Below, one piece after another: positions 16,848 to 33,859 of a DNA stretch of 39,101 bases; position 1 is the stretch's first letter; each line of letters opens with the position of its first letter. Source of the DNA: Candidatus Eiseniibacteriota bacterium (GTDB lineage: Bacteria; Arandabacterota; Arandabacteria; Arandabacterales; Arandabacteraceae); assembly GCA_043810925.1 (NCBI GenBank), contig JBDRNT010000041.1, positions 1 through 39,101 of the forward strand. Direction: 5' to 3'. The notes under the pieces are model-generated. The model worked only from the letters and a program-made list of their open reading frames with translations. It was not told the DNA's origin and made no database searches. Both the position numbers and the translations under genes were made by a program.

Positions 16848-16960
16848 ATGACTGTTTCCTCTCCGGCAAACAGGCCTGATTTGTAATCATACCGACCGCT
16901 ATCGAGCTACTGAATGCACCGGGTGTTGTCAACACATCTGGCAGTTGCCTCGAGCGAACG

Positions 16961-17086
16961 AAGTCCTGCGGGTGGCTGCTCGGACGGCCATGTTCCACAC
17001 GGGTATTCCAATGCGATCATCGCAACTTCTTGATGAGCGCGAAATGCACCGAAGCGGCGCAGTCCATCGCCGGTCCGGCATGGTGA
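16961..17086 (+). repeat. att-like / serine-recombinase 3'-end copy S1
   Basis: Reads KSCGWLLGRPCSTRVFQCDHRNFLMSAKC...*; CGCAACTTCTTGATGAG (17021-17037) is 16/17 identical to 30564-30580. Confidence 0.6.
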
Positions 17087-17152
17087 TACCTCTGCCCTCG
17101 GTCGCCATCAGACTGAATGCTCTTGTGAAAAGGTAACCAATTAAGTAACCTT

Positions 17153-17169
17153 ATACGGGTGTGGGGTAT
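17153..17169. promoter_or_regulatory. CsoR-type operator
   Basis: ATAC-GGGTGTGGG-GTAT, i.e. TAC/GTA inverted repeat around a G-tract, upstream of csoR. Confidence 0.6.
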
Positions 17170-17200
17170 CCAAAGAAATATGAAAGGGGGTATGGATTCA

Positions 17201-17482
17201 ATGATTGATGACACGGTGGAGGGCGACGCTCTCAAGCGATTGAGGCGGATCGAGGGCCAGGTGATCGGGGTCCAGAAGATGATAAAGGAGCGTAGATACT
17301 GCATGGACATTGTCAATCAGGTATCGGCGGTCGAGGCAGCTCTTCACAGGGTATCCAAAATCGTTCTGAGGAATCATATCAAGACCTGTGTGCTCTCGGC
17401 TTTCAGATCAGGCGATACGGACGACGTAACCCGCAAAGTCGACGAGCTGATGCGGGTATACGACAATGTCCGCTTGAAGTAG
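17201..17482 (+). CDS. csoR: Copper-sensing transcriptional repressor, CsoR/RcnR family
   Basis: RLRRIEGQV.G.QKMI...YC.DI; Cys-His-Cys ligands (RYC, HIKTC); alternative start at 17192. Confidence 0.88.
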   Translation: MIDDTVEGDALKRLRRIEGQVIGVQKMIKERRYCMDIVNQVSAVEAALHRVSKIVLRNHIKTCVLSAFRSGDTDDVTRKVDELMRVYDNVRLK

Positions 17483-17586
17483 GTGGCCGTGATGATTCAA
17501 AAGTCTGGTAATGCAATCTGCTCAGATGAGTTTCTTGCTATCCGCGTCGCATTCGGGGTGCCGGATGCTACCGAGGGAGGTTTACG

Positions 17587-18294
17587 ATGTTGCGAAGTCA
17601 GCTGATAAGGAACGATGTAAAGATCACCGGGCTGGTTATATTCTCGGCAATCATGATCATCGGCGGTTTCGTACTTGCCGCAGAGCCGGAGGTCGGCTCG
17701 CCCGAGCAAGCCAAGGAAGATACCTACCCGCTGGAAACGTGTATCGTCTCGGGCGAGAAGCTCGGTTCGATGGGCACGCCCTTCATCTATGAGCACGAAG
17801 GCCGTGAGATCCGATTCTGCTGCAAGGGTTGCGTTGGCGGTTTCCAGAAGGATCCCGCCGGTTACCTAAAGAAGATGGACGAGGCCATCATCGCCGGCGA
17901 GGTCCCGGACTATCCACTTGATACTTGCGTTGTGAGCGGCGATACTCTGGGGACGATGGGCGATCCCGTGGACCGCGTGTACGACAACCGGCTCGCACGC
18001 TTATGCTGCGCCGGCTGCATCCACAAGTTTGAAAAGCAACCCGATCAGTATATGAAGATCATAGATGAAGCAAGGGCGGCCCGGGCTGCCGAGCAGTCAC
18101 CGAGGCCGTACCCTCTGGATACATGTATCGTATCGGGAGGCAAGCTGGGAGCGATGGGCGAGCCGGTGACCTATGTATATGAAGGTCAGGAGATTCTGTT
18201 CTGCTGCGCGGGCTGCGTCCCTCAGTTTGAGAAGAATCCGGAGAAATACATGAAGAAGCTGATCTCTCTGGAAGCTGACAAGACCGGAGAGTAA
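17587..18294 (+). CDS. Exported triple YHS/TRASH-like metal-binding protein
   Basis: Signal peptide plus three repeats YPLxTCxVSGxxLGxMGxP...(F/L)CCxGC. Confidence 0.8.
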   Translation: MLRSQLIRNDVKITGLVIFSAIMIIGGFVLAAEPEVGSPEQAKEDTYPLETCIVSGEKLGSMGTPFIYEHEGREIRFCCKGCVGGFQKDPAGYLKKMDEAIIAGEVPDYPLDTCVVSGDTLGTMGDPVDRVYDNRLARLCCAGCIHKFEKQPDQYMKIIDEARAARAAEQSPRPYPLDTCIVSGGKLGAMGEPVTYVYEGQEILFCCAGCVPQFEKNPEKYMKKLISLEADKTGE

Positions 18295-18322
18295 CATCCG
18301 GCGAACAAGGAGGGCGTGGATC

Positions 18323-19804
18323 TTGGCGGTACGAACAGGCCTTAGAAGCGCATGCGGCAAGGGGGTGCGTCCCTGCCTGAGCATGCCGGCCTTCTGGCTG
18401 ATGTCGGTGGCGCTGCTTGCAGGGCTCGCCGGGTGTGCGTCGGTTGAGGAGCGGCAGGCTTTCCTCAATCTCAAAATAGAAGCCGGAGCGTTCGCCGGTG
18501 AGGCCGATGCCTCCGCAGCTGGTATGATCCCGGAACTTGGTGAAGATGCCACACTTTCGGACTACACGGCGTACGCTCTTTTGCGGAACCCCGGGCTGGA
18601 GGCGGCCTTCAATGACTGGAAGGCGGGCCTCGAAAGGGTCTCTCAGGCCCGCTCGCTCCCCGACCCTCGATTCACGTATGTCCATTATGTCGAGGCGGTC
18701 GAGACACGTGTCGGCCCTCAAGAACGGTCCTTCGCCCTGATGCAGACCTTCCCCTGGTTGGGAAAACTCCAGCGGCAAGGCGACATCGCCTTCAAAGAGG
18801 CCGAGGCGGCACGGCAAAGATACGAGGCCGCAAGACTCAGGCTGATCTACCAGTTGAAGCTCGCATACTATGAGTATTACTATCTCTGGCGCGCCATCTC
18901 AGTTATGGAGACCGACATCAAACTGGTCTCGAATCTTGAGGGGATCGCAAGGACGAAGTACGAGGTCGGCACTGTTCCGTATTCCACCCTCATCAAGGCC
19001 CAGGTGGAGATGGGGAAGCTCGAGGAGACGCTCGCGACCCTCATGGACCTCGAAGACCCCACTGTCGCCCGGTTGAACAAGACGCTCGGACGTCCGCCGG
19101 ACGCCTACCTGGCGCGGCCGACGTCCCTGGACACTGAACCGATCACTTCTAGCGACGACGATATCCTGGCAGAACTCAAGAGGAACAACCCGGAACTTCT
19201 CGCCCTCGATCTCATCGTTTCAAAAGAAGAGGCATCTATCGGCCTGGTGCGACAGGGGTACTTCCCCGATATTACACTGGGCGCGACGGTCGTGAGAACC
19301 GGCGACGCGCTGAATCCTCAACTGGAGGACAGCGGTAAGGACCCCGTGATGGCGACAGTCTCGCTCAATCTTCCTATCTGGATCGGCAAACACCGCGCAG
19401 CGGGAAGAGAAGCTCGCGCACGGCTTCACGCAACAGCCAAACGTCGTGAGGATCACGAGAACCAGCTTCTGAGCGATCTCAAGCTGGCTCTCTTCGGCTT
19501 CCGCTCGGCAGAGCGAAAGATAGACCTTTATGGCGATTCATTGATTCCAAAGGCCGAGCAGGCGCTGACCGCATCCCGGAAGGCTTTTTCCGCCGATAAG
19601 GCGGATTTCTTCGATCTGATCGAAGCCCAGCGCACGCTATTGGAATTCCAATTGGCCCATGAGCGGGCGCTGGCCGATCGCGCCGAGCGCCTCGCCGAGA
19701 TCGAAATGTTGATCGGCCGGCAGGTCAGGCCGGAACAGAGCGTGGGGCCGGGCGTAGGAATGGACAGCCCGGCGCCTCCCGAAGCGGAGTCCGAGCCTGA
19801 GTAG
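18323..19804 (+). CDS. TolC-family outer-membrane efflux lipoprotein (CusC-like)
   Basis: Lipobox LAGC, ARSLPDP, QTFPWLGK, YFPDITLG, SLNLPIW; position in the operon. Confidence 0.9.
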   Translation: MAVRTGLRSACGKGVRPCLSMPAFWLMSVALLAGLAGCASVEERQAFLNLKIEAGAFAGEADASAAGMIPELGEDATLSDYTAYALLRNPGLEAAFNDWKAGLERVSQARSLPDPRFTYVHYVEAVETRVGPQERSFALMQTFPWLGKLQRQGDIAFKEAEAARQRYEAARLRLIYQLKLAYYEYYYLWRAISVMETDIKLVSNLEGIARTKYEVGTVPYSTLIKAQVEMGKLEETLATLMDLEDPTVARLNKTLGRPPDAYLARPTSLDTEPITSSDDDILAELKRNNPELLALDLIVSKEEASIGLVRQGYFPDITLGATVVRTGDALNPQLEDSGKDPVMATVSLNLPIWIGKHRAAGREARARLHATAKRREDHENQLLSDLKLALFGFRSAERKIDLYGDSLIPKAEQALTASRKAFSADKADFFDLIEAQRTLLEFQLAHERALADRAERLAEIEMLIGRQVRPEQSVGPGVGMDSPAPPEAESEPE

Positions 19805-19822
19805 GCCGAGGAGGTAGCGATT

Positions 19823-21724
19823 ATGAAGGATGGGATCGAGAAAAAACCGGGAAGGGGCTATTCGTGGAAGATGGTTGCCATCTTGTGCATCGGGGCTACA
19901 GCCCTCATAGCAATCGGCATCTGGGGTGGTCATTCCATAGGCAAGAGCGAAAAGGCTGAAGCCTTGGGCGGCGACCACGCGATGGATCAGGCCGGACAGG
20001 CTGAGATCTGGACATGTTCGATGCACCCGCAGATACGGCAGCCGAAACCCGGCAAGTGCCCGCTTTGTGGCATGGACCTGGTTCCGGTCACTGAAGCAGG
20101 CGCGGGAGATGCCGGCGCGAGGGAACTCAGGCTTTCTCCGGCTGCGATGAAACTCGCTGAGATCCAGACCGCTGCCGTTGAGAGAAGAGTTGTCGCCGCC
20201 GAGGTCAGGATGGCCGGCAAAGTCGACTATGACGAGACCCGTGTGAGCTATATCACTGCCTGGGTTCCCGGCCGGCTCAATCAGATGTACATCGATTACA
20301 CGGGTGTTGCGGTCGAACAGGGCGCCCCCATGGTATCGATCTACAGTCCCGAACTCGTGGTGGCGCAGGAGGAACTCATCCAGTCGGTAAGGGCGATGGA
20401 GAATCTGCAGACAAGTGAAGTCGAAAGCCTGAAACGGACGGCGCGAGAGACGCTCCATGCAGTGCGGGAAAAGCTGCGTCTCCTTGGGCTCACACCGGAC
20501 CAGATCTCGGAAATAGAAACGCGAGGCACGGTATCGGATGAGATCGTCATCGGGGCTCCCGCCGGCGGCGTCGTGGTCGACAAGGCCGCAGTCGAGGGCC
20601 AATACGTAACCACCGGTACGCTGATTTATACTATTGCAGACCTCACCCGCGTCTGGGTCAAACTGGACGCGTACGAGTCGGACCTTCCCTGGCTCCGGTC
20701 CGGCCAAGATGTCGAGTTTACGGCCGAAGCCCTTCCGGGTGAGACCTTCAATGGTGAAGTGGCTTTCATCGATCCCGTGCTGGATCCTAAAACCCGGACG
20801 GCCAAGGTCCGGGTGAACGTGGAGAATCCCGGCGGTAGGCTCAAGCCTGCGATGTTCGTGCGAGGTGTGGTTAGCGCGGACGTGGCTCCGGTCGGCCGGG
20901 CCCAGGCACCATTGGTGATCCCGGCTTCGGCTCCGCTCATTACGGGCAAACGCGCGGTGGTTTATCTCGAGACCGAGCCCGGACTTTATACGGGTATGGA
21001 AATCGTGCTCGGTCCGCGGGCCGGCAACTTCTATGTCGTCGAGGAAGGACTCGAGGAGGGCCAGCGCGTCGTCACGAACGGCAATTTCAAGATAGACAGC
21101 GCAATTCAGATTCTTGCCAAACCCAGCATGATGAACCCGGAGGGCGGAGGGCCTCTGCCCGGTCATCAGCATGGTGGCGCGGGAAGTTCCGGCAGTGTTG
21201 CCGCTGGGTATCATGCTGAAGCGCGATTCATTGTCCCTGCAGAATTCGCGGACCAGATTGCCCGCGTGTATGACTCCTATCTGGAAATCCACCACGGCCT
21301 CAGTCGTGACTCGCTTGAAAACGCCAAGGCCGCCGCGAAGCACCTCGAAGCGAGGGTCGGCTCCGTAGACATGACGCTCCTCGGGGGAGCCGCCCACAAC
21401 GCCTGGATGGATTATCTTGGCGGGCTTAAGGCTCATGCGGGCATGGTCCGGTCGGCGGAGGATATCACCGCGGCAAGAAGCGGATTCGCGCCGCTTTCGG
21501 AGACCATGTATGCCGCGCTAAAGAGTTTCGGGGCGGGTGGCAGTACGCCCGTCTACCGCTTCCACTGCTCGATGGCCTTCGGTGGCAGCGGGGCAAACTG
21601 GCTTCAAAGCACCAGGGAAGTCGAGAATCCTTACTGGGGCGCGGCAATGTTCAGTTGCGGCGAGATGACGGAAAGTGTAGCCGCCGGCTCGGAAGACGAA
21701 CCGGGAGAGCACCACCATGAGTGA
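19823..21724 (+). CDS. cusB: CusB-like RND membrane-fusion protein with heavy-metal-binding domain and C-terminal DUF3347-like domain
   Basis: WTCSMHPQIRQPKPGKCPLCGMDL, YSPEL..AQEEL, LKPAMF; C-terminal CSMAF...W...NPYWG..M..CG. Confidence 0.88.
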   Translation: MKDGIEKKPGRGYSWKMVAILCIGATALIAIGIWGGHSIGKSEKAEALGGDHAMDQAGQAEIWTCSMHPQIRQPKPGKCPLCGMDLVPVTEAGAGDAGARELRLSPAAMKLAEIQTAAVERRVVAAEVRMAGKVDYDETRVSYITAWVPGRLNQMYIDYTGVAVEQGAPMVSIYSPELVVAQEELIQSVRAMENLQTSEVESLKRTARETLHAVREKLRLLGLTPDQISEIETRGTVSDEIVIGAPAGGVVVDKAAVEGQYVTTGTLIYTIADLTRVWVKLDAYESDLPWLRSGQDVEFTAEALPGETFNGEVAFIDPVLDPKTRTAKVRVNVENPGGRLKPAMFVRGVVSADVAPVGRAQAPLVIPASAPLITGKRAVVYLETEPGLYTGMEIVLGPRAGNFYVVEEGLEEGQRVVTNGNFKIDSAIQILAKPSMMNPEGGGPLPGHQHGGAGSSGSVAAGYHAEARFIVPAEFADQIARVYDSYLEIHHGLSRDSLENAKAAAKHLEARVGSVDMTLLGGAAHNAWMDYLGGLKAHAGMVRSAEDITAARSGFAPLSETMYAALKSFGAGGSTPVYRFHCSMAFGGSGANWLQSTREVENPYWGAAMFSCGEMTESVAAGSEDEPGEHHHE

Positions 21725-24700
21725 TTCGAGCGACGGCAGGTCCGGGGAGAGCTTCTCCGCGATCGGCGCGGTCATCGGCTTCTTTCTCAGGAACAAAGTA
21801 ATCGTGATACTCGGGGTGCTGGCCCTGGTCTTCTGGGGTATCGGTGTGGCCCCATTCGACTGGGACATCAAGCGCCTGCCGCGCGACCCGGTCCCCGTTG
21901 ACGCTATTCCTGACATCGGAGAGAACCAGCAGATCGTATTCACGACATGGGCAGGCCGGTCGCCCCAGGACGTCGACGACCAGATCTCCTATCCTCTGAC
22001 AGCGGCTCTTATCGGTGTTCCCGGAGTCAAGACCGTTCGAAGTTTTTCGATGTTGGGTTTCTCCACCATCTACGTCATTTTCAAGGAAGATGTAGAGTTC
22101 TACTGGTCCCGCTCCCGTATCCTGGAGAAGCTTAACAGCCTCCCACCGGGTCTCTTACCTGACGGGGTGCAGCCCGCACTGGGGCCCGACGCCACGGCGC
22201 TCGGCCAGGTTTTCTGGTACACGCTTGAAGGCCGTGACGAAGACGGCAGCCCCGCCGGTGGATGGGACCTCGATGAGCTTCGGAGTGTCCAGGACTGGAC
22301 GGTCCGATATGCGCTCCTCTCCGCCGAGGGTGTGAGCGAGGTCGCATCGGTGGGTGGCTTCGTCCGCGAGTACCAGATTGATGTGGATCCCAATGCGATG
22401 CTCGCAAGCGGCGTTTCCCTCGAAGAGGTCTTCACGGCGGTGCGGATGGCCAACGTGGATGTAGGGGCGCGCACTATCGAAGTTAACCAGGTCGAATACA
22501 TTATCCGCGGCATCGGTTTCATTAAGGGTCCCGAGGATATCGAGAATACCGTAATCAAGATGAAGGACAATGTACCGATCTATGTGAAGACCGTGGCCAG
22601 GGTCTCACGGGGGCCGGCCCTCAGGCGCGGCGCACTCGATAAGGAAGGCACGGAAGCGGTCGGTGGAGTAGTGGTGGTCCGCTACGGCGAAAACCCGCTG
22701 GCCGCCATAAACAACGTCAAGAAGAAGATCGCGGAGATCGCCCCCGGTCTGCCGAAGAAGATCCTCCCGGACGGCACCGTGAGCCGGGTAACGATAGTCC
22801 CGTTCTACGACCGCACCGGACTGATTCAACAGACCCTGGGCACCCTGAAATCGGCGCTGACTGAAGAAATCCTTGTTACGATCATCATCGTGCTCATCAT
22901 GGTTATGCACCTGCGGAGTTCATTGCTGATCTCCGGACTGCTGCCCCTGGCCGTCCTTATGTGCTTCATCGCGATGAAAATGTTCGGCGTTGATGCCAAT
23001 ATCGTTGCCCTGTCTGGTATTGCGATTGCGATCGGCACCATGGTGGACATGGGGATCGTCATCACGGAGAACATCATCAAGCACCTGGACGAGGCAGATC
23101 CGGGTGAGGACCGGCTGGAGGTCGTACTCAGGGCATCAAAAGAGGTGGGTTCGGCGGTGGTGACCGCGGTCAGTACTACGGTTGTGAGTTTCCTGCCGGT
23201 ATTCACCATGGTTGCAGCCGAGGGGAAGCTCTTCAGACCCCTTGCATTCACGAAGACCTTTGCCCTCATAGCCTCGGTGGTTGTCGCTATCACAGTCCTT
23301 CCGTCGCTGGCGCACCTTCTTCTCACCGCAAAGAGCATAAAGCCACGGGCCTTCCGCCTGGGCATCCACGGCTCGGCCGTACTTGCGGGTATTGCCGTAA
23401 TTGTGATCACGCTTGTAAGAAGCGTCTCGGGGGCGGGCTCAGCACCTGGCTACGTCTGGTGGGTGCTGGGACTGGTGCTCATCGGAATAGGAGCGTATCA
23501 TCTCGTCTCCGAACGGCTTCCTGAGCGGGGCCGCCGGTGGGCCCCGAAGGCAAGCAATGTGATAATCGCTGTAGTCGTCGCCATAGTCCTTACCAGACAC
23601 TGGATGCCCCTGGGTCTCGACAAGAATCTCTTGATCAACGTCGTTTTCGTTGCAGCCCTGATCGGGAGCTTCCTTGCGATCATTCTTCTCTTTTACAAGT
23701 TTTATGCGCCGGTGCTTAAGTGGTGTCTAGGCCATAAGCTCGCGTTTCTTGCGATTCCTGCGGTTCTCACCTTTCTCGGTGTGATGACCTGGCTGGGCTT
23801 CAGCACGTTCTTCGGGTGGCTGCCCCTGGGTGTCAGGACGTCGTGGCCGACCTCGGCGCTTGTGCACACCTTCCCGGGCCTGGGCAAGGAGTTCATGCCT
23901 CCGCTCGATGAGGGCTCCTACCTCCTGATGCCGACCACAATGCCCCATGCCTCGATCGGAGAGGTCATGGATGTTTTGAGCAAGCAGGACATGGCAATTA
24001 CCCGGATACCGGAGGTGGAGTCGGCCGTCGGCAAAATCGGCAGGGCCGATACGCCGCTCGATCCGGCGCCCATCTCGATGATTGAAACCGTGATCAATTA
24101 TCACCCGGAGTATATTGAGGATCGTAGCGGATATCTTCTGACTTTCCAGCATGACAGCGATGAAAACGACTACTTCCGGGACGTGGTGGGAAATCCGGTT
24201 CCGGCGGGTGATGGCGAGCCCTACATAGTCAAGGGACGGTTTGCGCGTGACGCCGAGGGCAGTCTGATCCCCGAACGGGGGGGTAAGCCCTTCCGACTCT
24301 GGCGGCCGCCGCTCGATCCCGAGCTCAATCCCGGCAGGGAAGCCCAGCCGGGCATAAGAGAGCCCGACGATATCTGGCGGGAGATCCAGAAGGCCGCCGA
24401 GATCCCCGGCACCACCCCGGCGCCAAAGCTTCAGCCCATAGCTGCGCGCATAGTGATGCTTCAAAGCGGTATGCGGGCACCCATGGGTGTAAAGATAAAG
24501 GGGCCGGACCTCAAGACCATAGAAGGTGTGGGACTGGAGATAGAAAGACTGCTTAAGGAAGTCCCGGCCGTGGATGCCTCAATGGTCATAGCGGACCGCA
24601 TCGTCGGGAAGCCCTATCTCGAGATAGAAATCGACCGTATGGCCATTGCCCGCTATGGGATTCACCTGGCGAAAGTACAGGATGTGATCGAGGTTGCCGT

Positions 24701-25766: not shown

Positions 25767-25768
25767 TT

Positions 25769-25807
25769 CAGGCCTTCCAGGACCATGCGGATCTTCTCTT
25801 CAGTGGA
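25769..25807 (-). mobile_element. Tiny remnant of an IS3-family OrfA
   Basis: Minus-strand translation STEEKIRMVLEGL resembles the IS3 OrfA motif SAEEKIRIVLEGL. Confidence 0.45.
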
Positions 25808-25816
25808 GAGCTACAG

Positions 25817-25906
25817 TCATACTATCTCAAGGAGATCTTTCAGCTGTTTGAGAAACGGATAACCTTGGTTGAGAGAGTAAACGCGCGTTCTGCCAAACGA
25901 TCGCCG
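25817..25906 (-). pseudogene. Fragment of a winged-helix regulator gene
   Basis: RRSFGRTRVYSLNQGYPFLKQLKDLLEIV* resembles the wing/C-terminal helix of wHTH proteins; no start. Confidence 0.45.
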
Positions 25907-26084
25907 GTCCGTCTAATCAATTAGATGGGAACCACACCTGGCATGCCGTGCAAGTACCATATTCTCAGGTGACTGTCAAAGCATTCACCGAAATGGTACG
26001 GCGAGTAGATATTCTGCCGAGAAGGTCCCCTTCGAGGCTAGTTGCCTCGCTGAAGCTAACGCTCATGCCTGCTCGAATCTGCCG

Positions 26085-26546
26085 CTAGCCGAAGCCCGGC
26101 CTGACACCAAACAGCAAGGCGATGGTCAGTACAGACCCGCTCCCAATGAGACAGCCAGACATCTTTCCCAGAGATGTGGTTATTGCCTCTCTTGATGCTT
26201 CGACACCATGCCCACGAAGCCACTCTGCGATACTTCCCTCAAAGAAACCTGCTATGGCGTCCGTCAGGGCATCGCCAATGACTACACCCGCGATGGCACC
26301 CGCTACACCGTAAGTCATCCCACCCCAGATGGCTGGAACCGTCAGTAATCCGGTGTCTATTGCACCAAAGACCATGTCCGGGACCGCGCCGACCAATGAA
26401 CGATGTGCGAGGATGATCCCCAGGAGAGGAAACACGGAGATGGCGAGGACAACCGGGCCCACAGGAAGCCGCTGCTGAAGCGTGTAGTAACCAACCAGTG
26501 CCACTGGCAGGGCGACAAAACCGACATAGAAACCCTTTCGTATCAT
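26085..26546 (-). CDS. Hypothetical membrane protein (TMEM65/VIT-like motifs)
   Basis: Several TM helices; FGAIDTG, IGDALTDAIAG, GCLIG. Confidence 0.7.
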   Translation of the reverse strand: MIRKGFYVGFVALPVALVGYYTLQQRLPVGPVVLAISVFPLLGIILAHRSLVGAVPDMVFGAIDTGLLTVPAIWGGMTYGVAGAIAGVVIGDALTDAIAGFFEGSIAEWLRGHGVEASREAITTSLGKMSGCLIGSGSVLTIALLFGVRPGFG

Positions 26547-26634
26547 TCGCTACCTCGTTTCCCTTCACCCAACGATCAATCGGAAGCTTCGGGGCACATT
26601 CACGCGGATATCCTCCAGCGCATGGTTCGGCGGA

Positions 26635-27021
26635 TCATAAACTCTCAATGACTGTTCTCAACCTGTCTCGAACTTCCTGGGCCACCTGTGCCAAGTTGTC
26701 GTTCTCAACAGACTGCATGGCGGAGACCGGGTCAATTGCGGAGACTTCGGCCGAACCCTCTTCCGTTGCTTGAACTACTACATTGCAGGGAAGCAGTAGA
26801 CCGATATTGCGCTCGGCCTGAAGCGCCTGATGGGCGAACGGCGGATTGCACGCACCGAGAATGATATAGTCCCTGAAATCCACGTCGAGTTTCTTTTTCA
26901 GTGTCGCCTTGACGTCGATCTCGGTCAGAACCCCGAAGCCCTCGGCCTTGAGGGCATCGATTACCTTCGGGATCGCCTCTTCGTACGAGCACTGTAAGAC
27001 CTTCGTAAAATAGTAGCCCAT
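26635..27021 (-). CDS. DUF302-domain protein
   Basis: GFGVLTEID...YIILGACNP...IGLLLPCNVVV; AAGGAGG SD before ATG 27021. Confidence 0.9.
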   Translation of the reverse strand: MGYYFTKVLQCSYEEAIPKVIDALKAEGFGVLTEIDVKATLKKKLDVDFRDYIILGACNPPFAHQALQAERNIGLLLPCNVVVQATEEGSAEVSAIDPVSAMQSVENDNLAQVAQEVRDRLRTVIESL

Positions 27022-27216
27022 TGTTCTTTCCTCCTTCGTTGCCGGACTATGACCCAGGTGGTTTCCGCAGAACACCCTTTGTTCGCCGAGCCAGTCTGAC
27101 AATAATCGACGTTGCACACTTATCAAGTAGCATGTTTTCGAGCACTCATCAACAGCTGTGCTGTTTACCCCGGGTGCTATGCCGCTTACACGTTGTAGGG
27201 GTCAGCGATCCTGTCC

Positions 27217-27259
27217 ACTGACGTGTCCCGCATGGGTTCCAAATCTGTACCAATGGCAC
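27217..27259 (+). repeat. att-like copy S2 (degenerate)
   Basis: GACGTGTCCCGCATGGGTTCCAAATCTGTACCAATGGCAC aligns ungapped 28/40 with 30648-30687. Confidence 0.5.
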
Positions 27260-27360
27260 TGTCGGCGGCGGATCATGCACGGTGCAGGCCCCAGACTGTC
27301 GCCGGCGGATGCCGTTCTGGAACCGGGGGCGTTATAGTAGAATTGGCCGCCTCGGCAGGG

Positions 27361-28062
27361 TCACCTTTTTTCGAGAGTAACACTCTCGCGCACATGTTTT
27401 CCGGCCGACAGTTTGATTCCTTCTTTCCTCACGGTCTTGTAGCCTTGAAGTGAACATTCGACATCCCAGGTACCAGGAGGAATAAGGGTCCGGACAAAGA
27501 TCCCCTCCCGGTTAGTCTGAGCGCGCACGACCATTCCCGCAACCTCGGGCTTGATCAACACCATCACACCCTCCAGTGGCTTTTCTTCCACGTCCAGAAC
27601 CTCCCCGGTGAGAATTCCCGTATTCGGAAACTCGGGGTCATCAAGCCCCACAAGCTTCACCTTGATCGGAACAACGATTTCAAGTGGACCGTCGAGACCC
27701 TCAATTTCCCAGGACTGCATCTTGGCAATAAGGGCTTTGGCCAGATCATCACTTCCCGTTTCATTCTTGACAATCTCTGCTGATGTTAGCACGCGGTTCT
27801 CCCACATCACCTTTATTTCTATCAGGCCGTTGAATGTGGGGTCCTGATGGTGAAAACGCATGGTTACGTCATGGAAGTCGTCGAAATTCGCCTGAAGATG
27901 TGCAACAAGGAGATCCCAATGAAGGCTATCCGCCGCTGTGAAGGCTGGAGATTCACCTTCGTCCGCGGATTGCCGTTCTCCAGCTTCCTTCTGACAAGAT
28001 ACACAGCAGAGCACCATTGCGACCACGACAGAAATGACAAGCAAGGTCTTATTCAACAACAT
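27361..28062 (-). CDS. Lipoprotein with TonB-C/AgmX-like domain and carboxypeptidase-regulatory-like (Cna-B) domain
   Basis: Lipobox VSC; GILTGEVLD...PLEGV.V...TNREGIF....IPPGTWDVECSLQGY; AGGAGGAGG SD. Confidence 0.75.
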   Translation of the reverse strand: MLLNKTLLVISVVVAMVLCCVSCQKEAGERQSADEGESPAFTAADSLHWDLLVAHLQANFDDFHDVTMRFHHQDPTFNGLIEIKVMWENRVLTSAEIVKNETGSDDLAKALIAKMQSWEIEGLDGPLEIVVPIKVKLVGLDDPEFPNTGILTGEVLDVEEKPLEGVMVLIKPEVAGMVVRAQTNREGIFVRTLIPPGTWDVECSLQGYKTVRKEGIKLSAGKHVRESVTLEKR

Positions 28063-28251
28063 GGTAACCTCCTCCTATTGCCGACAATTCTTACTTGAGC
28101 CAATGGCTCACCCACCATAATAAGGTTCCGTTCCCCCCTCCCCTCGGTGTGCGTGTGTGAATGATATTCATTGCCCAAACGAGGCTCATGTTTCCACGAC
28201 CCATACGCCTCCCCTCTGACCGAACGCAGTGACAGTTTAGGACCAGACCAA

Positions 28252-29229
28252 TCAATATGTGTAGGATGCTATCGCTTCCTGAAGGGCGACCCGAATTGGG
28301 GTATATGTTATCCCCAATTCCCTTTCGACCCTGCTACCGTCAACCTCTGCTCCCTCTTTCATTGTTCTCATCTGGTCTATTGCGATGCCTAAGAGCGGAG
28401 GTTTCTTAGCAATGTCAGCCATTAAGGTGAGGAGCCTTGCATTTAACATGGCCAACGAAGCCGGCATCCTGAGTCGGGGAAGTGCCACGCCTGATATCTC
28501 ACTGATCATCTGGTTCATCTGCCCGAATGTCAGGTTCTGCGCGACGGCCAGGTATTTACCGCTGATGTTATGTTCCTTCTCTGCTGCCCTGACGATGACC
28601 TCGGCGACATCCCGCACATGTACCCACGGGAAGAGTACGTCGTCGAACACTGTGGCGGGCATGCGTCCGTTCAAGAGGTTCTGGATATATTCACCGGTGG
28701 CCTGTGGATCGCCCGGCCCCAGAACACCACCTGGGTATACCATGACCAGCGGAAGGCCCTTGGTCTTGCTGGCCTCCCAGGCAATCAGGTCCCCCTCGTG
28801 CTTGGTGCGGGCATACTCACTGAAACGGACCGGGCCTGGATTGCTGTCTTCGTTGAAAGGGCGCTCGGCCGGTCTTCCATAGATTGCCACAGTGCTAACA
28901 TGCACAACCTTGGAAACCCCAGCCTCCAGAGCGCACTCCATGACGTTCCGAGTGCCACCAATATTGACGTCGGCGTAGGTTCGCTTCCTCGGGAGCCAGA
29001 AGGAATAGGCCGCCGCGATGTTTACTACCCACTCACAACCGTTCATACCTCGCTGCAAAGAGGCCCGATCGGTCAGATCTCCAACGGCGAGAGCGGCGTC
29101 CAGCTTCTTGAGCTTGCTGGTATCACTCATACGCCTGACGAGGCAAGTGAGTTCATGGCCTGCCGCTACTAGGCGCTCCGCCGTGTGACGTCCAATGAAA
29201 CCGGTGGCGCCGGTGACGAATGTTCTCGT
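28252..29229 (-). CDS. NAD-dependent epimerase/dehydratase (HpnA/dihydroflavonol-reductase-like); the start codon appears to be ACG
   Basis: FVTGATGFIG, HVST, YARTK; AGGAGGTG SD followed by an in-frame ACG at 29229. Confidence 0.85.
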   Translation of the reverse strand, partial: TRTFVTGATGFIGRHTAERLVAAGHELTCLVRRMSDTSKLKKLDAALAVGDLTDRASLQRGMNGCEWVVNIAAAYSFWLPRKRTYADVNIGGTRNVMECALEAGVSKVVHVSTVAIYGRPAERPFNEDSNPGPVRFSEYARTKHEGDLIAWEASKTKGLPLVMVYPGGVLGPGDPQATGEYIQNLLNGRMPATVFDDVLFPWVHVRDVAEVIVRAAEKEHNISGKYLAVAQNLTFGQMNQMISEISGVALPRLRMPASLAMLNARLLTLMADIAKKPPLLGIAIDQMRTMKEGAEVDGSRVERELGITYTPIRVALQEAIASYTY

Positions 29230-29340
29230 ATCATCACCTCCTGGAAACTCTGCATTATTCAACCTCGCTTGATCCTCATCTTCCTTGTTACATCTGATGC
29301 TGTGGGATGTCCAGCAAAACCGTAGGCAAGCAGTCAGGTC

Positions 29341-29445
29341 CGTTTCGAGTGTATCCCTTGGTTCCCCAAACTGAACGATCTTCGCAACTCTTTCATGAGG
29401 GAGGAATGTCTCAGATTGGGACAACTCGCCGCTAACATGTCATAG
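29341..29445 (+). repeat. att-like copy S3
   Basis: Reads RFECIPWFPKLNDLRNSFMREECLRLGQLAANMS*; shares CCCCAAACTG with S6/S8 and TTCGCAACT...ATGAG with S7. Confidence 0.65.
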
Positions 29446-29464
29446 GACTTAGGATTGTCGCGCG

Positions 29465-29495
29465 CTGACATGTTCCACATGGCTTCGCATACGGG
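29465..29495 (+). repeat. att-like copy S4 (left half only)
   Basis: CTGACATGTTCCACATGGCTTC (LTCSTWL) matches GACATGTTCCGCACGCCTCC at 30648 and CATGTTCCACACGG at 16989. Confidence 0.5.
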
Positions 29496-29524
29496 TTTCC
29501 CACTGCCAACTGCTGCTCAATCGG

Positions 29525-30418
29525 TCAAGGTTTGTAAGGGAAGGTGACTTGCGTAGGATCTGTGCCATCGGCGTTCACAACCCAGATGACCATTGCGCGG
29601 CCATCGGCCGATCGAGCCCCGTAAGCTATTCTCCTGCCGTCAGGTGACCAAGAGGGCACAGCCCCGGGGCAGGCAACCAGTTGCTGGCCCGTTCCATCCG
29701 GATTGATCACCCAGATTCCGACACTCTTCTTCTTGCTTTCACAGTATGCGCCGTAGGTCACCAATCTCCCATCAGGCGACCACCGGGCATGCCAACCGTA
29801 TCCGTATTGCTGATCATAGGGAATAGTACCAAGGAAGTTGCCTGCCGTGTCGTACATCTCCATTATGAAGCACAGCAGCTTGGACCCGTCGGGTGACCAG
29901 TCTGGTTCACCTTGAGAACAGATCCACCTGGTCTCTTGAGTTTCCAGATTGTAGATCGTGACCCCGATCGGATCCTCGCTGTTGTCAAAGGCGATCATCG
30001 TACCGCACGGAGAGAAGTCAGGTGTATAGCCACGAATGGGAAGCATTTCTTCATCACCGGTTTCGACATTCACCAGTACTATTCCCGGTACGCTGCTGTG
30101 TACAATGACGTGGCTGCCATCAGGCGACCAGTCCGCGATGATTCCTGAGGTGACATAGCGTGTCTTGGCAGTCTCGAGATCAACGATCCAGGTAGTATAG
30201 TCGCCGAACTCCAGATGCTCTTCCCACGTCACAGCGATATGGGTGTATGCAACGAGGCTCGTGTCGGTGGGACTCCACTTTGGCCAAGCGTCCTGCATAT
30301 ATGCATGGTCAGGCTCAATGTAATAGGAATCGGTGACTTTATCATCATCACAACCAATCATGGTGAGGGACAGTGCAAGGAATGCTAAGACCAAGACGAC
30401 TCTGGGCATTACGTTCAT
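29525..30418 (-). CDS. TolB-like PD40 (WD40-like) beta-propeller lipoprotein
   Basis: Lipobox MIGC; repeated (P)xWSPDG motifs. Confidence 0.85.
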   Translation of the reverse strand: MNVMPRVVLVLAFLALSLTMIGCDDDKVTDSYYIEPDHAYMQDAWPKWSPTDTSLVAYTHIAVTWEEHLEFGDYTTWIVDLETAKTRYVTSGIIADWSPDGSHVIVHSSVPGIVLVNVETGDEEMLPIRGYTPDFSPCGTMIAFDNSEDPIGVTIYNLETQETRWICSQGEPDWSPDGSKLLCFIMEMYDTAGNFLGTIPYDQQYGYGWHARWSPDGRLVTYGAYCESKKKSVGIWVINPDGTGQQLVACPGAVPSWSPDGRRIAYGARSADGRAMVIWVVNADGTDPTQVTFPYKP

Positions 30419-30545
30419 GGCTGTCCACCTCTGCTCACGCCGATGCATGTGCCGGCAGCTTCCTGTACTACTTTACCTCACCCCGCCCGAGCTGTCCAGA
30501 TTCGCTCCTGTTTCAGCCGTCTGATCATGGGAAACTCAAGCGATA

Positions 30546-30641
30546 CCCAACGGAGAAGGCTTTCGCGACTTCTTGATGAGTGAGGAATACATCAGTCTGG
30601 TACAACATGTGGGTACCACGTCATATAGCAACGTGCCTTAA
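30546..30641 (+). repeat. att-like copy S5 (right half)
   Basis: CCCAACGG-A-GAAGGCTTTCGCGACTTCTTGATGAGTGAGGAATAC... aligns about 40/54 (one gap) with 30725-30778; reads EGFRDFLMSEEY...*. Confidence 0.65.
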
Positions 30642-30642
30642 T

Positions 30643-30707
30643 CGGCCGACATGTTCCGCACGCCTCCCCAAACTGCACCATAGGCAGAACTTTCAGGGTG
30701 GTGTTCG
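30643..30707 (+). repeat. att-like copy S6
   Basis: 30662-30707 is 45/46 identical to 33643-33688 (GCCTCCCCAAACTGCACCATAGGCAGAACTyTCAGGGTGGTGTTCG). Confidence 0.9.
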
Positions 30708-30720
30708 GTCTACGTTCTCC

Positions 30721-30779
30721 CTCCCCCAACGGGACGACTTTCGCAACTTTCTGATGAGCCAGAAGTGCGTCAAGATGGC
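30721..30779 (+). repeat. att-like copy S7 (core plus right half)
   Basis: CTCCCCCAACGGGACGACTTTCGCAACTTTCTGATGAGCCAGAAGTGC, reading LPQRDDFRNFLMSQKC. Confidence 0.7.
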
Positions 30780-30887
30780 GGGAGGTGATTCTCTAACGGC
30801 AGCAGGCGCTGCTACTCCGAGCCGAACTTAGCGGCTGCCTTGGCGGCCTTCGCGGCTTCCTCTTCCTCCAAGACCCTTACGAGAGGC

Positions 30888-30916
30888 TTGCTGAGACGAT
30901 TGAAATGGGGTATACT
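30888..30916 (+). promoter_or_regulatory. sigma70-type promoter
   Basis: TTGCTG-17 nt-TATACT upstream of the DUF11 gene. Confidence 0.45.
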
Positions 30917-30948
30917 GAAATAGTGGCCGGAGGCCAGAGAGGCGAGAT

Positions 30949-33240
30949 ATGCGAGGACATACCGGCTGTTGTTGCATCCCTGATGATGCCCTCATCCGAT
31001 ACCCCCGTGTGGTGGTTACTGCCGCCTGGATCATCATCGCATTTACCCTGATCACATACGGACCTGCCTTGTGCGGGTCTAACCAGAATGCCAGAGTCGC
31101 CGTTCATGTGATCCCCCACGATGGGGGACGAACTTGTAATCACGGCATGCCCGAAATCTCCTACTGTACCGACCTACGCACGACGCTGGACACCTGCGGC
31201 GATGTCGATTTCTTCCCCGTCTTCTTTGAAGTCATCGAATGTCAAGGCATCGAATATGGCGTGACCTGGCCTGGGAGTTATAGCTGTGCTTTCACCAGCT
31301 GCAGCGATCTTAAGATTGGTGATATAATCTGGCCGGGCGACGGGGTCTCGCACGCCTGGTTTGACTGTCAACCTGGGCCTGTTGCCATCCCCGGATGGGG
31401 CTGGGTTAGTGTAAATGATTCAGGTCACATACGTGTCGTGCCCCACCCGGGAACCGGTGAGATTACCGTAGGCGACTGTGTGCGCCGGCTTGACGATATT
31501 GAAGATGTTTACTCTGCCGGGGTCTGCGGTGCTCTGGGTGATGACCCAAGCGGCTGGGGCTATAACCCGCTCAATGTAGGTAAGCGCGACGGGCTGGGCG
31601 GTGAATGTGCGGCGCCGGACCAGAGCCTGATCTATACGATCCAGTATGACAGCCCCAACTCCAACCTGATACACGATGCTACCCTAGTCGACTACCTCCC
31701 TCCGGAGATCGAGTTTGTCTCCACCACCGATGGCGGCACATACGATATCGGGACGCACGCGGTCACCTGGGACATCGGGACTATCAGCCAGTATGCCGCC
31801 GATTCCGCACAGGTGATCACGCATATCCCGCCGGCCACACCTTACGGAACGTTGCTTACCAATCGTTGTCGGATAACCGGTCTGGAGACCGGTCCTACTG
31901 AGGTCGAGATGCTCACAACGGTCTGCACCGGAGGATCTCAGGCGCTCACAATCACAAAGAACGACGGGCTCGGCAGCGATGGTACGGTTCCCGGGGCAGG
32001 GCTTACATACACAATCACCTATGCCAACTCGGGGAATCTGGAATCGGTCCACGATGCGATTTTGACTGATCTTCTGCCGCCGGAGGTCGAGTTCGTCTCG
32101 GCCGATGATCCCGGGGTTTATGATGCAGGCCAGCACAGCATCACCTGGGATGTGGGAACACTTGGAAGTGACGCATCGGGGACGGCACAGGCACAGGTAG
32201 TCGTCTCGATGTCCACCGACCCCGGGGTGCGGCTCATAAACCGCTGCTGGATAGTGTGCAGTGAAGCACCGGCTGCCGAGACAGCCGAGACGACGAGGGT
32301 CCACTCAGTGGAGTCTGAACCCCTTGCCATCAGCAAGCGTGCCAAGGGGCCATCCTCGTCCTTGGGGCCTTTCTTCCCCGGAGATGACATAACGTACACC
32401 ATAACCTATGGCAACAACACCAACGACTATGCCGTTCATGGCGTCCTCCTGAGAGATGTGCTTCCCGCTCAGACAGGCTTTGTCTCATCCAGCGACTGGG
32501 GTATGTATGATAGCGAAAGCCACTCCGTGACCTGGGACATAGGCACACTTGCACCGGATGAAGCGGGGTCCCGCCAGGTTGTCGTGAGGGTGCCCTTGGA
32601 TACCGAGCCCGGCACCATCATTTCCAATCTGTGCAGGGTTTTCAGTGACGAGGCACCGAGCTCTAAAGCCACCGCCCAGACAGTGATCTCCAGTTTCGGA
32701 GAGTGTATGATCGCCATCCATGTGCGCCCTCATCAACAGACCACAACATGTACCCAGATCGGCTCCGATGTAAACGACTGCGGTGACATCGTGACCACGA
32801 CGGGTTCTTGCGACGTCGACGTATTCCCGGTCTTCTTTGAGATTGTCGAATGCCAGGGGTTGGGCTACGGTCTAACCTGGCCCGCCGAGTGGGGTGAGAT
32901 GGCTTTCACGAGCTGTAGTGACGTCACCGAGGGCACTCTTGCTGTGCCCGGCGATGGCGTCTCACACAGTTGGACAAGTTGCCGTACCAACTACGTGGTA
33001 ATCCCGGGCTACGGTCGGCTTATCGCTGACAGTCCGGGCCTCATCGAGTTGATCCACCACCCGGCAACCGGGATGATAAGCCTGACCACCTGCAGGGGCT
33101 ATGAGTATCAGGTCTATCCGATGGGTGGTTTGGTGTATCGAGCCGGCGTGTGCGGTGCCGCAGGCGACCCGGTTGAATGCGGAGGACCCCAGCGCATAGT
33201 CCCCACCACCTGGAGCAGCATCAAAGCTTTGTTCAGGTGA
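30949..33240 (+). CDS. Secreted protein with three DUF11-like Ig repeats flanked by a duplicated Cys-rich domain; TW tail
   Basis: Three repeats of YTIxY...HxxxLxDxLP....FVS....G.YD...H..TWD.GT; ends VPTTWSSIKALFR*. Confidence 0.85.
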   Translation: MRGHTGCCCIPDDALIRYPRVVVTAAWIIIAFTLITYGPALCGSNQNARVAVHVIPHDGGRTCNHGMPEISYCTDLRTTLDTCGDVDFFPVFFEVIECQGIEYGVTWPGSYSCAFTSCSDLKIGDIIWPGDGVSHAWFDCQPGPVAIPGWGWVSVNDSGHIRVVPHPGTGEITVGDCVRRLDDIEDVYSAGVCGALGDDPSGWGYNPLNVGKRDGLGGECAAPDQSLIYTIQYDSPNSNLIHDATLVDYLPPEIEFVSTTDGGTYDIGTHAVTWDIGTISQYAADSAQVITHIPPATPYGTLLTNRCRITGLETGPTEVEMLTTVCTGGSQALTITKNDGLGSDGTVPGAGLTYTITYANSGNLESVHDAILTDLLPPEVEFVSADDPGVYDAGQHSITWDVGTLGSDASGTAQAQVVVSMSTDPGVRLINRCWIVCSEAPAAETAETTRVHSVESEPLAISKRAKGPSSSLGPFFPGDDITYTITYGNNTNDYAVHGVLLRDVLPAQTGFVSSSDWGMYDSESHSVTWDIGTLAPDEAGSRQVVVRVPLDTEPGTIISNLCRVFSDEAPSSKATAQTVISSFGECMIAIHVRPHQQTTTCTQIGSDVNDCGDIVTTTGSCDVDVFPVFFEIVECQGLGYGLTWPAEWGEMAFTSCSDVTEGTLAVPGDGVSHSWTSCRTNYVVIPGYGRLIADSPGLIELIHHPATGMISLTTCRGYEYQVYPMGGLVYRAGVCGAAGDPVECGGPQRIVPTTWSSIKALFR

Positions 33241-33339
33241 TACCGCACCCGGAGAGGACCCAGAGAACCGGGATCCAGCCAGTCGATCAGGCCGCGCGCC
33301 AGTACCGCTGAACCCCGGAGATCCTAAACGTCATGGGCG

Positions 33340-33690
33340 TTTGACGGCAAGATCGATGAGGGATTCTGGGAAAGGAAATCAGAAGAGTGGCGAGCTCATC
33401 AGGAAGACGTCCGAAAAGCCATGGACAACGCGAGGAGGCGAACAAGGTCTACCTGGGTGGGGGAATCAAGATAATCGAGGTTGCACAGAAGGCATATTCA
33501 ATATGGGCGAACCGGGATTCGCACGACAACCGTAGGATTCTGGATGCACTACTTTCGAATTGCACGCTCGATGGCGTAAGGCTAATGCCCACTTATAGAA
33601 AGCCGTTTTGCTGGCTTGTTGATCGGCCTCCCCATACCGTCTGCCTCCCCAAACTGCACCATAGGCAGAACTCTCAGGGTGGTGTTCGAG
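33340..33690 (+). pseudogene. 5'-truncated, frameshifted C-terminal remnant of a large serine recombinase
   Basis: FDGKIDEGFWERKSEEWRAHQEDVRKAMD, frameshift near 33430, then EEANKVYLGGGIKIIEVAQKAYSIW...RRILDALLSNCTLDGVRLMPTYRKPFCWL; resembles the coiled-coil/C-terminal region of these recombinases. Confidence 0.75.
33643..33688 (+). repeat. att-like copy S8 at the 3' end of the recombinase remnant
   Basis: 45/46 identical to 30662-30707. Confidence 0.9.
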
Positions 33691-33859
33691 ATCACTCCCC
33701 GGTCAGGTTCCTCGGATGGGTCTTATGTCGCTCGGTGAATACCGCCTGCCACCAAGCCGATTGTGGAGGGACGGTATCCCTCGCCAGGCGGGTAGATGAC
33801 GAGATGCTGGAGCATCCGAACGAAGTGGAGCAGGCGAGAGATTCGATCGACAGTAATGG

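Follow-up and report, generated by a model that had tools for sequence, protein, structure and literature searches.

Probable att-site relics of large serine recombinase elements in tandem arrays of a Candidatus Eiseniibacteriota genome

The eight sites and the sequence that they encode

The stretch of DNA examined here (the window) is the whole 39.1-kb contig C41 of a Candidatus Eiseniibacteriota genome (G000; 3.85 Mb, 185 contigs, 92% complete), which, like all the genomes used, is a fragmented metagenome-assembled genome (MAG) whose assembly is broken by repeats. Eight short related sequences, S1 to S8, lie on its plus strand among accessory genes, together with the remnant of a large serine recombinase (LSR) gene. 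With the reservations weighed below, these sites are probably relics of the attachment (att) sites of LSR elements that integrated at the junction of T-stem and acceptor stem in tRNA genes, serial integration having produced tandem arrays.

A sequence-only reading had listed the eight same-strand copies, and all were recovered by a repeat search of the window, as families at 29363/30544/30722 (51 nt), 17020/29382/30563/30741 (29 nt) and 27217/29464/30645 (29 nt), and as a pair, 30638-30707 and 33619-33688, that is 84% alike. The copies lie outside the called genes, as had been stated, except for S3, which overlaps the longest open reading frame (ORF) call of the epimerase gene (28252-29424). 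Three segments are distinguished: an upstream A box (GACATGTTCC..), a core, and a coding tail, which in S6 and S8 is replaced by the B' continuation TGCACCATAGGCAGAACTTTCAGGG.

S1, 16949..17086, plus strand: short LSR C-terminal remnant ..RTKSCGWLLGRP, then A box GCCATGTTCCACACG, degenerate core and tail (..HRNFLMSAKC..PAW, stop TGA at 17084-17086, plus strand); nhmmer E 2.4e-10
S2, 27212..27267, plus strand: A box GACGTGTCCCGCATG and degenerate core without tail, a truncated relic; nhmmer E 4.9e-5
S3, 29340..29445, plus strand: core TGGTTCCCCAAAC and complete tail ..FPKLNDLRNSFMREECLRLGQLAANMS of the 'ANMS' subtype, stop TAG at 29443-29445, plus strand; nhmmer E 3.1e-13
S4, 29465..29500, plus strand: A box GACATGTTCCACATG and partial core, ended by the 3' end of the convergent PD40 gene
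S5, 30529..30641, plus strand: degenerate tail ..GFRDFLMSEEYISLVQHVG..; nhmmer E 6.7e-9
S6, 30645..30712, plus strand: A box, core CCTCCCCAAAC and B' continuation TGCACCATAGGCAGAACTTTCAGGGTGGTGTTCG
S7, 30718..30790, plus strand: core CTCCCCCAAC and tail ..LPQRDDFRNFLMSQKCVKMAGG; nhmmer E 3.4e-11
S8, 33620..33702, plus strand: diverged A region, core CCTCCCCAAAC and B', in frame with the LSR remnant; 84% to S6
LSR remnant, 33328..33642, plus strand: last ~105 codons, FDGKIDEGFWERKSEEW.. / ..LLSNCTLDGVRLMPTYRKPFCWLVDRP, reading towards S8

Four of the sites differ from their first description. S2 and S4 consist only of the A box and a degenerate core, and S6 and S8 run from A box and core into the B' continuation instead of the tail. 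S8 had been read as the true 3' end of the LSR remnant; it is indeed joined to the remnant, but the frame continues to 33878 and has no tail ending. In S7 the distal tail is diverged and the conserved stop position holds no stop. The end of S3, AACATGTCA, and the sequence TGACATGTT in S4 form a 9-bp inverted repeat that recurs in relatives (L057, L061); no significant fold was found for it (z -0.69).

The reading of the copies as a protein C-terminus proved right. Their plus-strand consensus is ..(T/I)CSA(R/W)LPQRDDFRNFLMSEECAKMAQMVANLA followed by a stop, which stands at a fixed place 21 codons past FRNF and is TGA, TAG or TAA depending on the copy. Variation by codon position decreases in the order 3 > 1 > 2, with entropies of 0.99, 0.81 and 0.65 over 20 copies. 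No copy lies inside a long gene: the stop-to-stop frames measure 33-148 aa, often lack a start codon, and have unrelated upstream parts. Judged by sequence, the copies are 5'-truncated 3' ends of an LSR gene. This origin, which had been proposed before, is supported by S1, S8 and the metagenome protein P0010, all of which join YRKPFCWL..P to the core; the likeness of KSCGWLLGRP in S1 to KPFCWLVDRP in the LSR remnant was confirmed. Four copies extend 150-230 nt upstream into LSR-like sequence (ALLSxxxLxD..). Left boundaries differ, lying ~20-30, ~40 and 150-230 nt upstream of the anchor, and at least 12 copies share the modal boundary at the A box though the DNA upstream of it is unrelated. S1 reads as a putative attP-like junction (P'-core-P) at the edge of the array, beside conserved core genes. 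The LSR remnant itself has a frameshift near 33440-33474, and is 42-54% identical to its closest relative, the LSR of contig C181.

The B' arm, GCACCATAGGCAGAACTTTCAGGG, was found in the window at 30675-30698 and 33656-33679 and at eight other places of the genome (C12 twice, C48, C64, C85, C119, C128). It is more conserved than the tail, with 0-2 mismatches per 24 nt in 10 matched copies, and the A box nearly always stands before it. Its origin may lie in another target or in another element arm. The A box and the tail together show an imperfect dyad, GTTCCGCACGCCTCCCC-AAAC-GGGACGACTTTCGCAAC, in which 11 of 17 positions match by eye.

Distribution of the repeat and its link to tRNA genes

The genome was scanned with an nhmmer profile of the eight copies, as the sequence-only reading had proposed, and 28 places on 13 contigs were found at E<1e-3. 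As the profile derives from the window copies, its matches there are circular; independent matches elsewhere include C99 (1.6e-14), C5 (3.1e-11) and C64 (2.3e-10). With a second, refined profile, 33 copies were counted on 17 contigs. Random orientation, named beforehand as a sign against the proposal, was not seen: the copies are co-oriented on all multi-copy contigs of this genome (6/6) and at all multi-copy loci of its relatives (9/9), that is, in 15/15.

A protein profile of 30 conserved residues was run over 41 genomes, including G000. Matches occurred in 8 of 12 other genomes of the same family, in 2 of 3 of the sister family and in none of 25 from other families, so that 10 of the 40 other genomes carry copies, all in two related families. 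These genomes have 2-31 copies each, in co-oriented runs spaced by 1-3 kb. An exact-pattern scan of 185,579 GTDB species genomes returned five contigs, all from MAGs, one of them Candidatus Eisenbacteria; viral contigs held no exact match to the core pattern.

The sequence-only reading had missed the target, the 3' end of tRNA genes. In arrays other than that of the window, the 18 nt directly 5' of the tail read as the tRNA-Asp(GTC) 3' end, GTCCCGTCGGCCCCGCCA, in reverse complement, exactly so in the C21/C33 subfamily, and local alignment of the tail with the tRNAs of this genome scored 45 (null maximum 35). Among the 33 copies, 10 have an Asp-type core (four exact, 18/18), 12 have a core called X type (..GTTTGGGGAGCCA), and 11 are too diverged to be classed. 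Exact Asp-type cores were also found in six copies of two relatives. Both tRNA-Asp genes of this genome have arrays directly 3' of them, with tails antisense to the tRNA:

C21:5102-5179, plus strand: tRNA-Asp, then five sites on the minus strand at 7.6-13.4 kb
C7:43385-43462, minus strand: tRNA-Asp, then three sites on the plus strand

In the relative G008 (contig C11), tRNA-Trp is followed by five sites with cores ending ..GCCTGCCA like tRNA-Trp, and one copy in G014 is a tRNA-Trp end at 18/18 positions. In G011, the sequence after the core is the flank found downstream of tRNA-Asp in C21, an arrangement that an attR would have.

The tail as a whole was considered as a pseudo-tRNA and rejected: neither ARAGORN nor Rfam found anything in the window, and the tRNA-derived part is confined to the last ~18 nt. 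For five tail-bearing loci, Rfam likewise gave no relevant match with E up to 5. A tRNA ending ..CCCGTTKGGGGAGCCA was sought as a source of the X cores, with two mismatches allowed, in 17 genomes; only tRNA-Glu(UUC) of G013 and G014 (two mismatches each) and one non-tRNA stretch were returned, and this candidate was dropped. About 130 nt downstream of tRNA-Asp, at C21:5290-5320, lies a string resembling a tRNA 3' fragment, AGAAGTTCTAATCCCGTATGGGGA; it was also noted on the reverse strand of L059 (~190-215 and ~3985-4010), and in G011 a reverse-complemented A box follows it. The string may be the remains of a second target beside tRNA-Asp.

LSR genes from elsewhere also appear to touch tRNA sequence. 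The homologues P0014-P0024 carry PF00239, PF07508 and PF13408 (Resolvase, Recombinase, zinc ribbon), and 8 of the 11 continue past YRKPF.. into strings such as DSNPRP or ELNPQP, which we take to be antisense tRNA; such read-through fits an LSR sitting at tRNA junctions. The LSR remnant of G013 ends ..LPIRD/SNSNSG over GGGATTCGAAC, the antisense of the T-loop. This genome has four long LSR frames, and no intact LSR lies in an array. The one at C181:6064-6381 (L015) is cut after ..LLSNCTFDGVSLYP, with a group II intron on the opposite strand; the intron-encoded protein has the C-terminus ..WRQWKRPYTRAKNLMKRGLDEARFWQSATNGHGPWWNAGASHMNEAFPKKFFDNLGLVSL, and intron-end copies, 87% identical, are also present on C109 and C13. 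A second, unrelated and intact LSR of 609 aa (C172:424-2253) ends ..GARYEPPTFGLQNK, presumably a read-through into tRNA-derived sequence by its likeness; ARAGORN found no adjoining tRNA.

The sites of the window separate the following modules:

S1-S2, 17159..27126, mixed strands: csoR, YHS/TRASH protein, OEP (cusC-like), CusB-like protein, 1349-aa ORF (21717-25766), 153-aa ORF (minus strand), DUF302 protein (minus strand)
S2-S3, 27361..29424, minus strand: CarboxypepD_reg lipoprotein and NAD-dependent epimerase
S4-S5, 29525..30448, minus strand: PD40-repeat protein
S7-S8, 30949..33240, plus strand: DUF11 surface protein, followed by the LSR remnant

In the tRNA-linked arrays a module is one gene co-oriented with the tRNA, then one site; the cargo comprises beta-helix proteins, a serpin, a DUF4185 protein and a Por_Secre_tail protein. 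The lipoprotein-epimerase and PD40 modules, antisense to the sites, match this pattern, and the cus block and the DUF11 gene are oriented opposite to it. No PF00589 or PF07508 match was found in modules S2-S3 and S4-S5 or in the array modules of C21, C7 and C143. With att-type flanks and no recombinase gene, these modules have, by their sequence, the make-up of putative cis-mobilizable elements, albeit between relic sites.

A module breakpoint at the site, as the sequence-only reading had predicted, was observed for one module in three genomes. A 1.65-kb block composed of a tail and the AbiEi/AbiEii genes (Pfam) is common to G000:C143, G007:C150 and G008:C83 at 73-79% identity; homology starts exactly at TGG/CTCCCC, upstream of which the three genomes have unrelated DNA. 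The suggestion that the 10-kb csoR-cus block is mobile by way of the sites was not supported, as the cus operon of G007 (80% identical) has no adjoining site. The cus operon, epimerase and lipoprotein of G007 lie on three site-free contigs, and the assemblies are too fragmented across S1 for anything decisive.

Some further features of the window were noted. A GC-rich pseudo-palindrome, TATACGGGTGTGGGGTAT, just upstream of csoR (17152-17169) is by likeness a candidate that we take to be a CsoR operator. The YHS/TRASH metal-binding gene has an internal duplication (17725-17834 and 18109-18218), and the cysteine-rich N- and C-terminal ends of the DUF11 protein are duplicates of each other (31199-31271 and 32810-32882). 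A C-terminal motif directly before the stop, (S/T)(T/S)W(G/S)xIK(S/A)(L/M)(Y/F)R, is common to secreted beta-helix and DUF11 proteins and was found at 33199-33240 and 34952-34993 of the window and at 8768-8809 and 9993-10034 of L001. It may be a lineage-specific sorting signal, and accounts in part for the DNA conservation beside some sites.

Proposed integration at tRNA genes and the competing explanations

In the proposed mechanism, the LSR gene would span its own attP, located inside its 3' coding end. The A box (codons ..HSLTCSA) would be the P' arm, and the last ~28 codons (DFRNFLMSEEC..ANLA and stop) the P arm. Crossover would take place at CTCCCCAAAC/GGGAC (..CCCCAAAC/GGGAC), near AAAC/GGGAC, which in tRNA terms would be the GT between T-stem and acceptor. 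After integration, the distal end of the inserted DNA would carry the P arm joined to the tRNA 3' end, and later integrations beside the regenerated tRNA would stack co-oriented tandem modules. Copies with A box, core and tail would be attP-like junctions, as expected within tandem arrays; those with a tRNA end would be attR-type, and the G013 copy attL-type. As most modules contain no recombinase, they would depend on an LSR provided in trans, or be fixed. Two earlier suggestions are thereby retained: the overlap of the recombination site with the end of the LSR gene is supported, and repeated integration is the best explanation of the arrays. We infer the LSR as catalyst, the crossover position, serial integration and mobilisation in trans, and likewise the way in which the site is regenerated for the next event and any present-day activity of the sites.

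Several observations weigh against this mechanism. LSRs normally do not recombine hybrid sites, which bears on how a site would be regenerated for the next integration. The relics retain an open frame and a fixed stop, which the mechanism leaves unexplained, and the attC hairpin present after some tails hints that a second recombination system may be involved. The sequence-only reading had expected an intact LSR with the tail as its end; such a gene was found neither among 5.8 billion clustered proteins, where a search with a 46-column alignment gave 13 matches of 87-143 aa, nor among 1.84 billion representatives, where HMMER gave 102 matches, 100 of them of 24-145 aa and two long ones that look spurious, being multi-stretch partial matches. 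C181 carries the one close LSR of the genome, and there the group II intron interrupts the gene ahead of the part in question. Neither a tRNA gene (ARAGORN) nor an Rfam match was found over the 39.1 kb of the window, the contig ending 5.4 kb past S8; the window cores are of X type (..GGGGAGCCA), for which no matching tRNA was found among 17 genomes. Single-gene modules of 0.6-2.3 kb are far below the known size of LSR islands. One public sequencing run (0.07 of the sampled words, contigs only, low depth) contained no circular or empty-site junction, which is no evidence either way; at 85% likeness it contained pieces of a relative over 30.5-33.5 kb. The window array itself appears old because its copies are diverged and several truncated, S2 and S4 being stumps, its sole LSR is a frameshifted 105-codon remnant, and the contig has no tRNA.

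A bolder form of the mechanism, which we regard as unlikely, is a working gene-cassette platform, in which single-gene cassettes with an attP-like site of ~60-130 bp (A box, core, tail) would be captured serially at tRNA genes by an LSR acting in trans. The attC sites 45 nt past the tail would then mark cassettes passing between IntI integrons and LSR arrays.

The occurrence of IntI in four relatives and of attC after some tails led to an examination of the integron reading. It holds that the copies belong to classical integron cassette arrays, or to integrase-less attC clusters moved by IntI, with the LSR tails as passenger debris. The modules are of cassette size, and toxin-antitoxin and defence genes are typical cassette cargo. 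A true IntI (TIGR02249, 457-471 bits, cut-off 265) is encoded in 4 of 17 genomes, at L053 (G002:C96), L052 (G007:C131), L051 (G008:C79) and L054 (G006:C244). In G002 and G007, cassette genes and attC hairpins lie 3' of intI on the same strand, an inverted-intI arrangement. Classical attC hairpins occur ~45 nt past the tail stop in several copies (C108, C143_1015, L059 471-570 and 1634-1748), and attC-like hairpins begin exactly where a conserved 45-nt spacer (..CTGCTGAGxxTAAC) ends (L059 471-570 and 1634-1748, L010 2860-2913, L002 784-912), the end of the spacer, ..CTAAC, being R-box-like. This suggests either the insertion of integron cassettes into the LSR element at one constant position or an exchange of cargo between the two systems. 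Hairpins were sought with a home-made AAC..GTT search, which gives many false matches in coding DNA and is not a curated attC model.

Against the integron reading stands first the lack of IntI in G000, whose best TIGR02249 match reaches 111.9 bits, below the cut-off of 265, in two pieces that skip the IntI-specific insert (model positions 179-236). The IntI contigs of the relatives carry no tail copy. The tails do not fold: tried as attC sites, nine tail stretches, five of them from the window, gave z from -0.1 to -1.75, and three attC controls -4.7 to -6.6. No attC hairpin was detected beside S1-S8 or in the C21 array by the naive AAC..GTT scan and an inverted-repeat search. In C21-type copies, 9 nt separate the tail stop from that of the convergent neighbour gene, which leaves no room for attC. 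Finally, IntI would leave unexplained the tRNA-end cores and the arrays at tRNA genes. The integron reading is accordingly held to be improbable.

Equally improbable in our judgement is an origin of the arrays as ordinary islands at tRNA genes built by a different enzyme, for instance a tyrosine integrase, with the LSR sequence as the decayed end of one ancestral element that was copied with the direct repeat. Tyrosine integrases classically target tRNA 3' ends, 14 Phage_integrase matches occur in the genome, and no intact tail-bearing LSR was found in the databases searched. No tyrosine-integrase or LSR match was found, however, on C21, C7 or C41, and LSR homologues elsewhere appear to read into antisense tRNA. 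The tails are moreover joined to the ends of at least two tRNAs (Asp and Trp), which requires repeated recombination at the same point of an LSR-derived sequence.

Slightly lower still is our estimate for copies without present site-specific mobility, dispersed relics serving as portable homology for general recombination and duplication. The divergence and truncation of the window copies, the variable left boundaries of the copies in general and the lack of joints in reads (one low-depth run) are in keeping with it. The exact breakpoint of the AbiE module, the match of cores to the adjoining tRNA, the strict co-orientation and the modal boundary at the A box, shared by at least 12 copies, are not.

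That the copies are genes for small proteins with a common C-terminal domain is very hard to sustain, despite the open frame with its fixed stop, the conservative substitutions and 100 short proteins of this kind predicted by gene callers, since the upstream sequence is unrelated, the start codon often absent, the frames as short as 33-40 aa, the A box read in differing frames (P0012, P0013), and no Pfam or other family matched.

Relation to known systems and significance

The sequence-only reading recognised no named system, but LSR-driven tandem islands at the tmRNA gene have already been described in Dehalococcoides (McMurdie et al. 2011, PMC3146451). These ssrA genomic islands (ssrA-GIs) stand in tandem directly downstream of the tmRNA gene, each bounded by a 20-bp direct repeat of its 3' end, with insertion inferred in the T-loop. 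The LSR DsiB, a CcrB homologue, is encoded on the reverse strand next to attL, and immediately upstream of the repeat the element carries a conserved motif. Fifteen islands without integration module are interpreted there as cis-mobilizable elements gathered by accretion (PMC3146451).

The Asp and Trp arrays resemble ssrA-GIs in having modules bounded by co-oriented repeats of the target 3' end, the window cores being of X type, and in starting directly downstream of an intact target gene (C21, C7 and G008:C11), which is not so in the window. They differ in that the targets are tRNAs (Asp, Trp and at least one as yet unassigned type) rather than a single tmRNA gene, and that the modules are far smaller, often of one gene and 0.6-2.3 kb. 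The conserved element arm here, of ~100 nt, codes for the C-terminus of the recombinase itself, none of the arrays was found to have an intact recombinase module, and there are ~33 sites per genome, over many loci.

Composite SCC/SCCmec islands (staphylococcal cassette chromosome; CcrAB/CcrC), as generally known, are comparable in that an LSR integrates at the 3' end of a conserved gene, short co-oriented att repeats part arrays of elements, and some elements lack ccr genes and are movable in trans. They differ in their protein-gene target (rlmH/orfX), in elements of tens of kb, and in repeats of ~18 nt that lie outside the recombinase ORF. With integrons the arrays share the co-oriented sites, each after one or a few genes, the size of modules and cassette-like cargo (toxin-antitoxin pairs, surface proteins), and true IntI and attC hairpins, which sometimes abut tails, are present in relatives; unlike attC, the sites are unfolded and go back to a serine-recombinase gene and a tRNA end, and G000 has no IntI. 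Integrases of the SSV1 type likewise are known to have the recombination site within their own coding sequence, a tRNA target, and a gene end altered by integration. They are tyrosine recombinases of archaeal viruses whose gene is split in two, whereas the exchange proposed here would affect only the final ~28 codons of a serine recombinase. Among the matches listed in a literature search on attC sites, serine recombinases and integrons, none dealt with LSRs acting at such arrays.

The process is one known from a few other bacteria, and is unusually fine-grained here. What is new are the several tRNA targets, the cassette-sized modules, the ~100-nt recombinase-coding arm and the contact with attC sites. 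This contact provides a lead on the movement of cassettes between recombination systems, and a cassette platform, if it existed, would be a serine-recombinase counterpart of the integron. If integration by LSRs is correct, their tandem accretion would be extended from tmRNA and rlmH to several tRNA genes and module size brought down to cassette scale, the recognition site of the recombinase would be written into its own last codons, and compact natural attP/attB pairs would become available for an LSR family, enzymes of interest for genome engineering. An uncultured sediment lineage would then build a large share of its accessory genome by adding small modules one by one at tRNA genes, with surface proteins, a serpin, AbiE toxin-antitoxin pairs and perhaps metal resistance as cargo.

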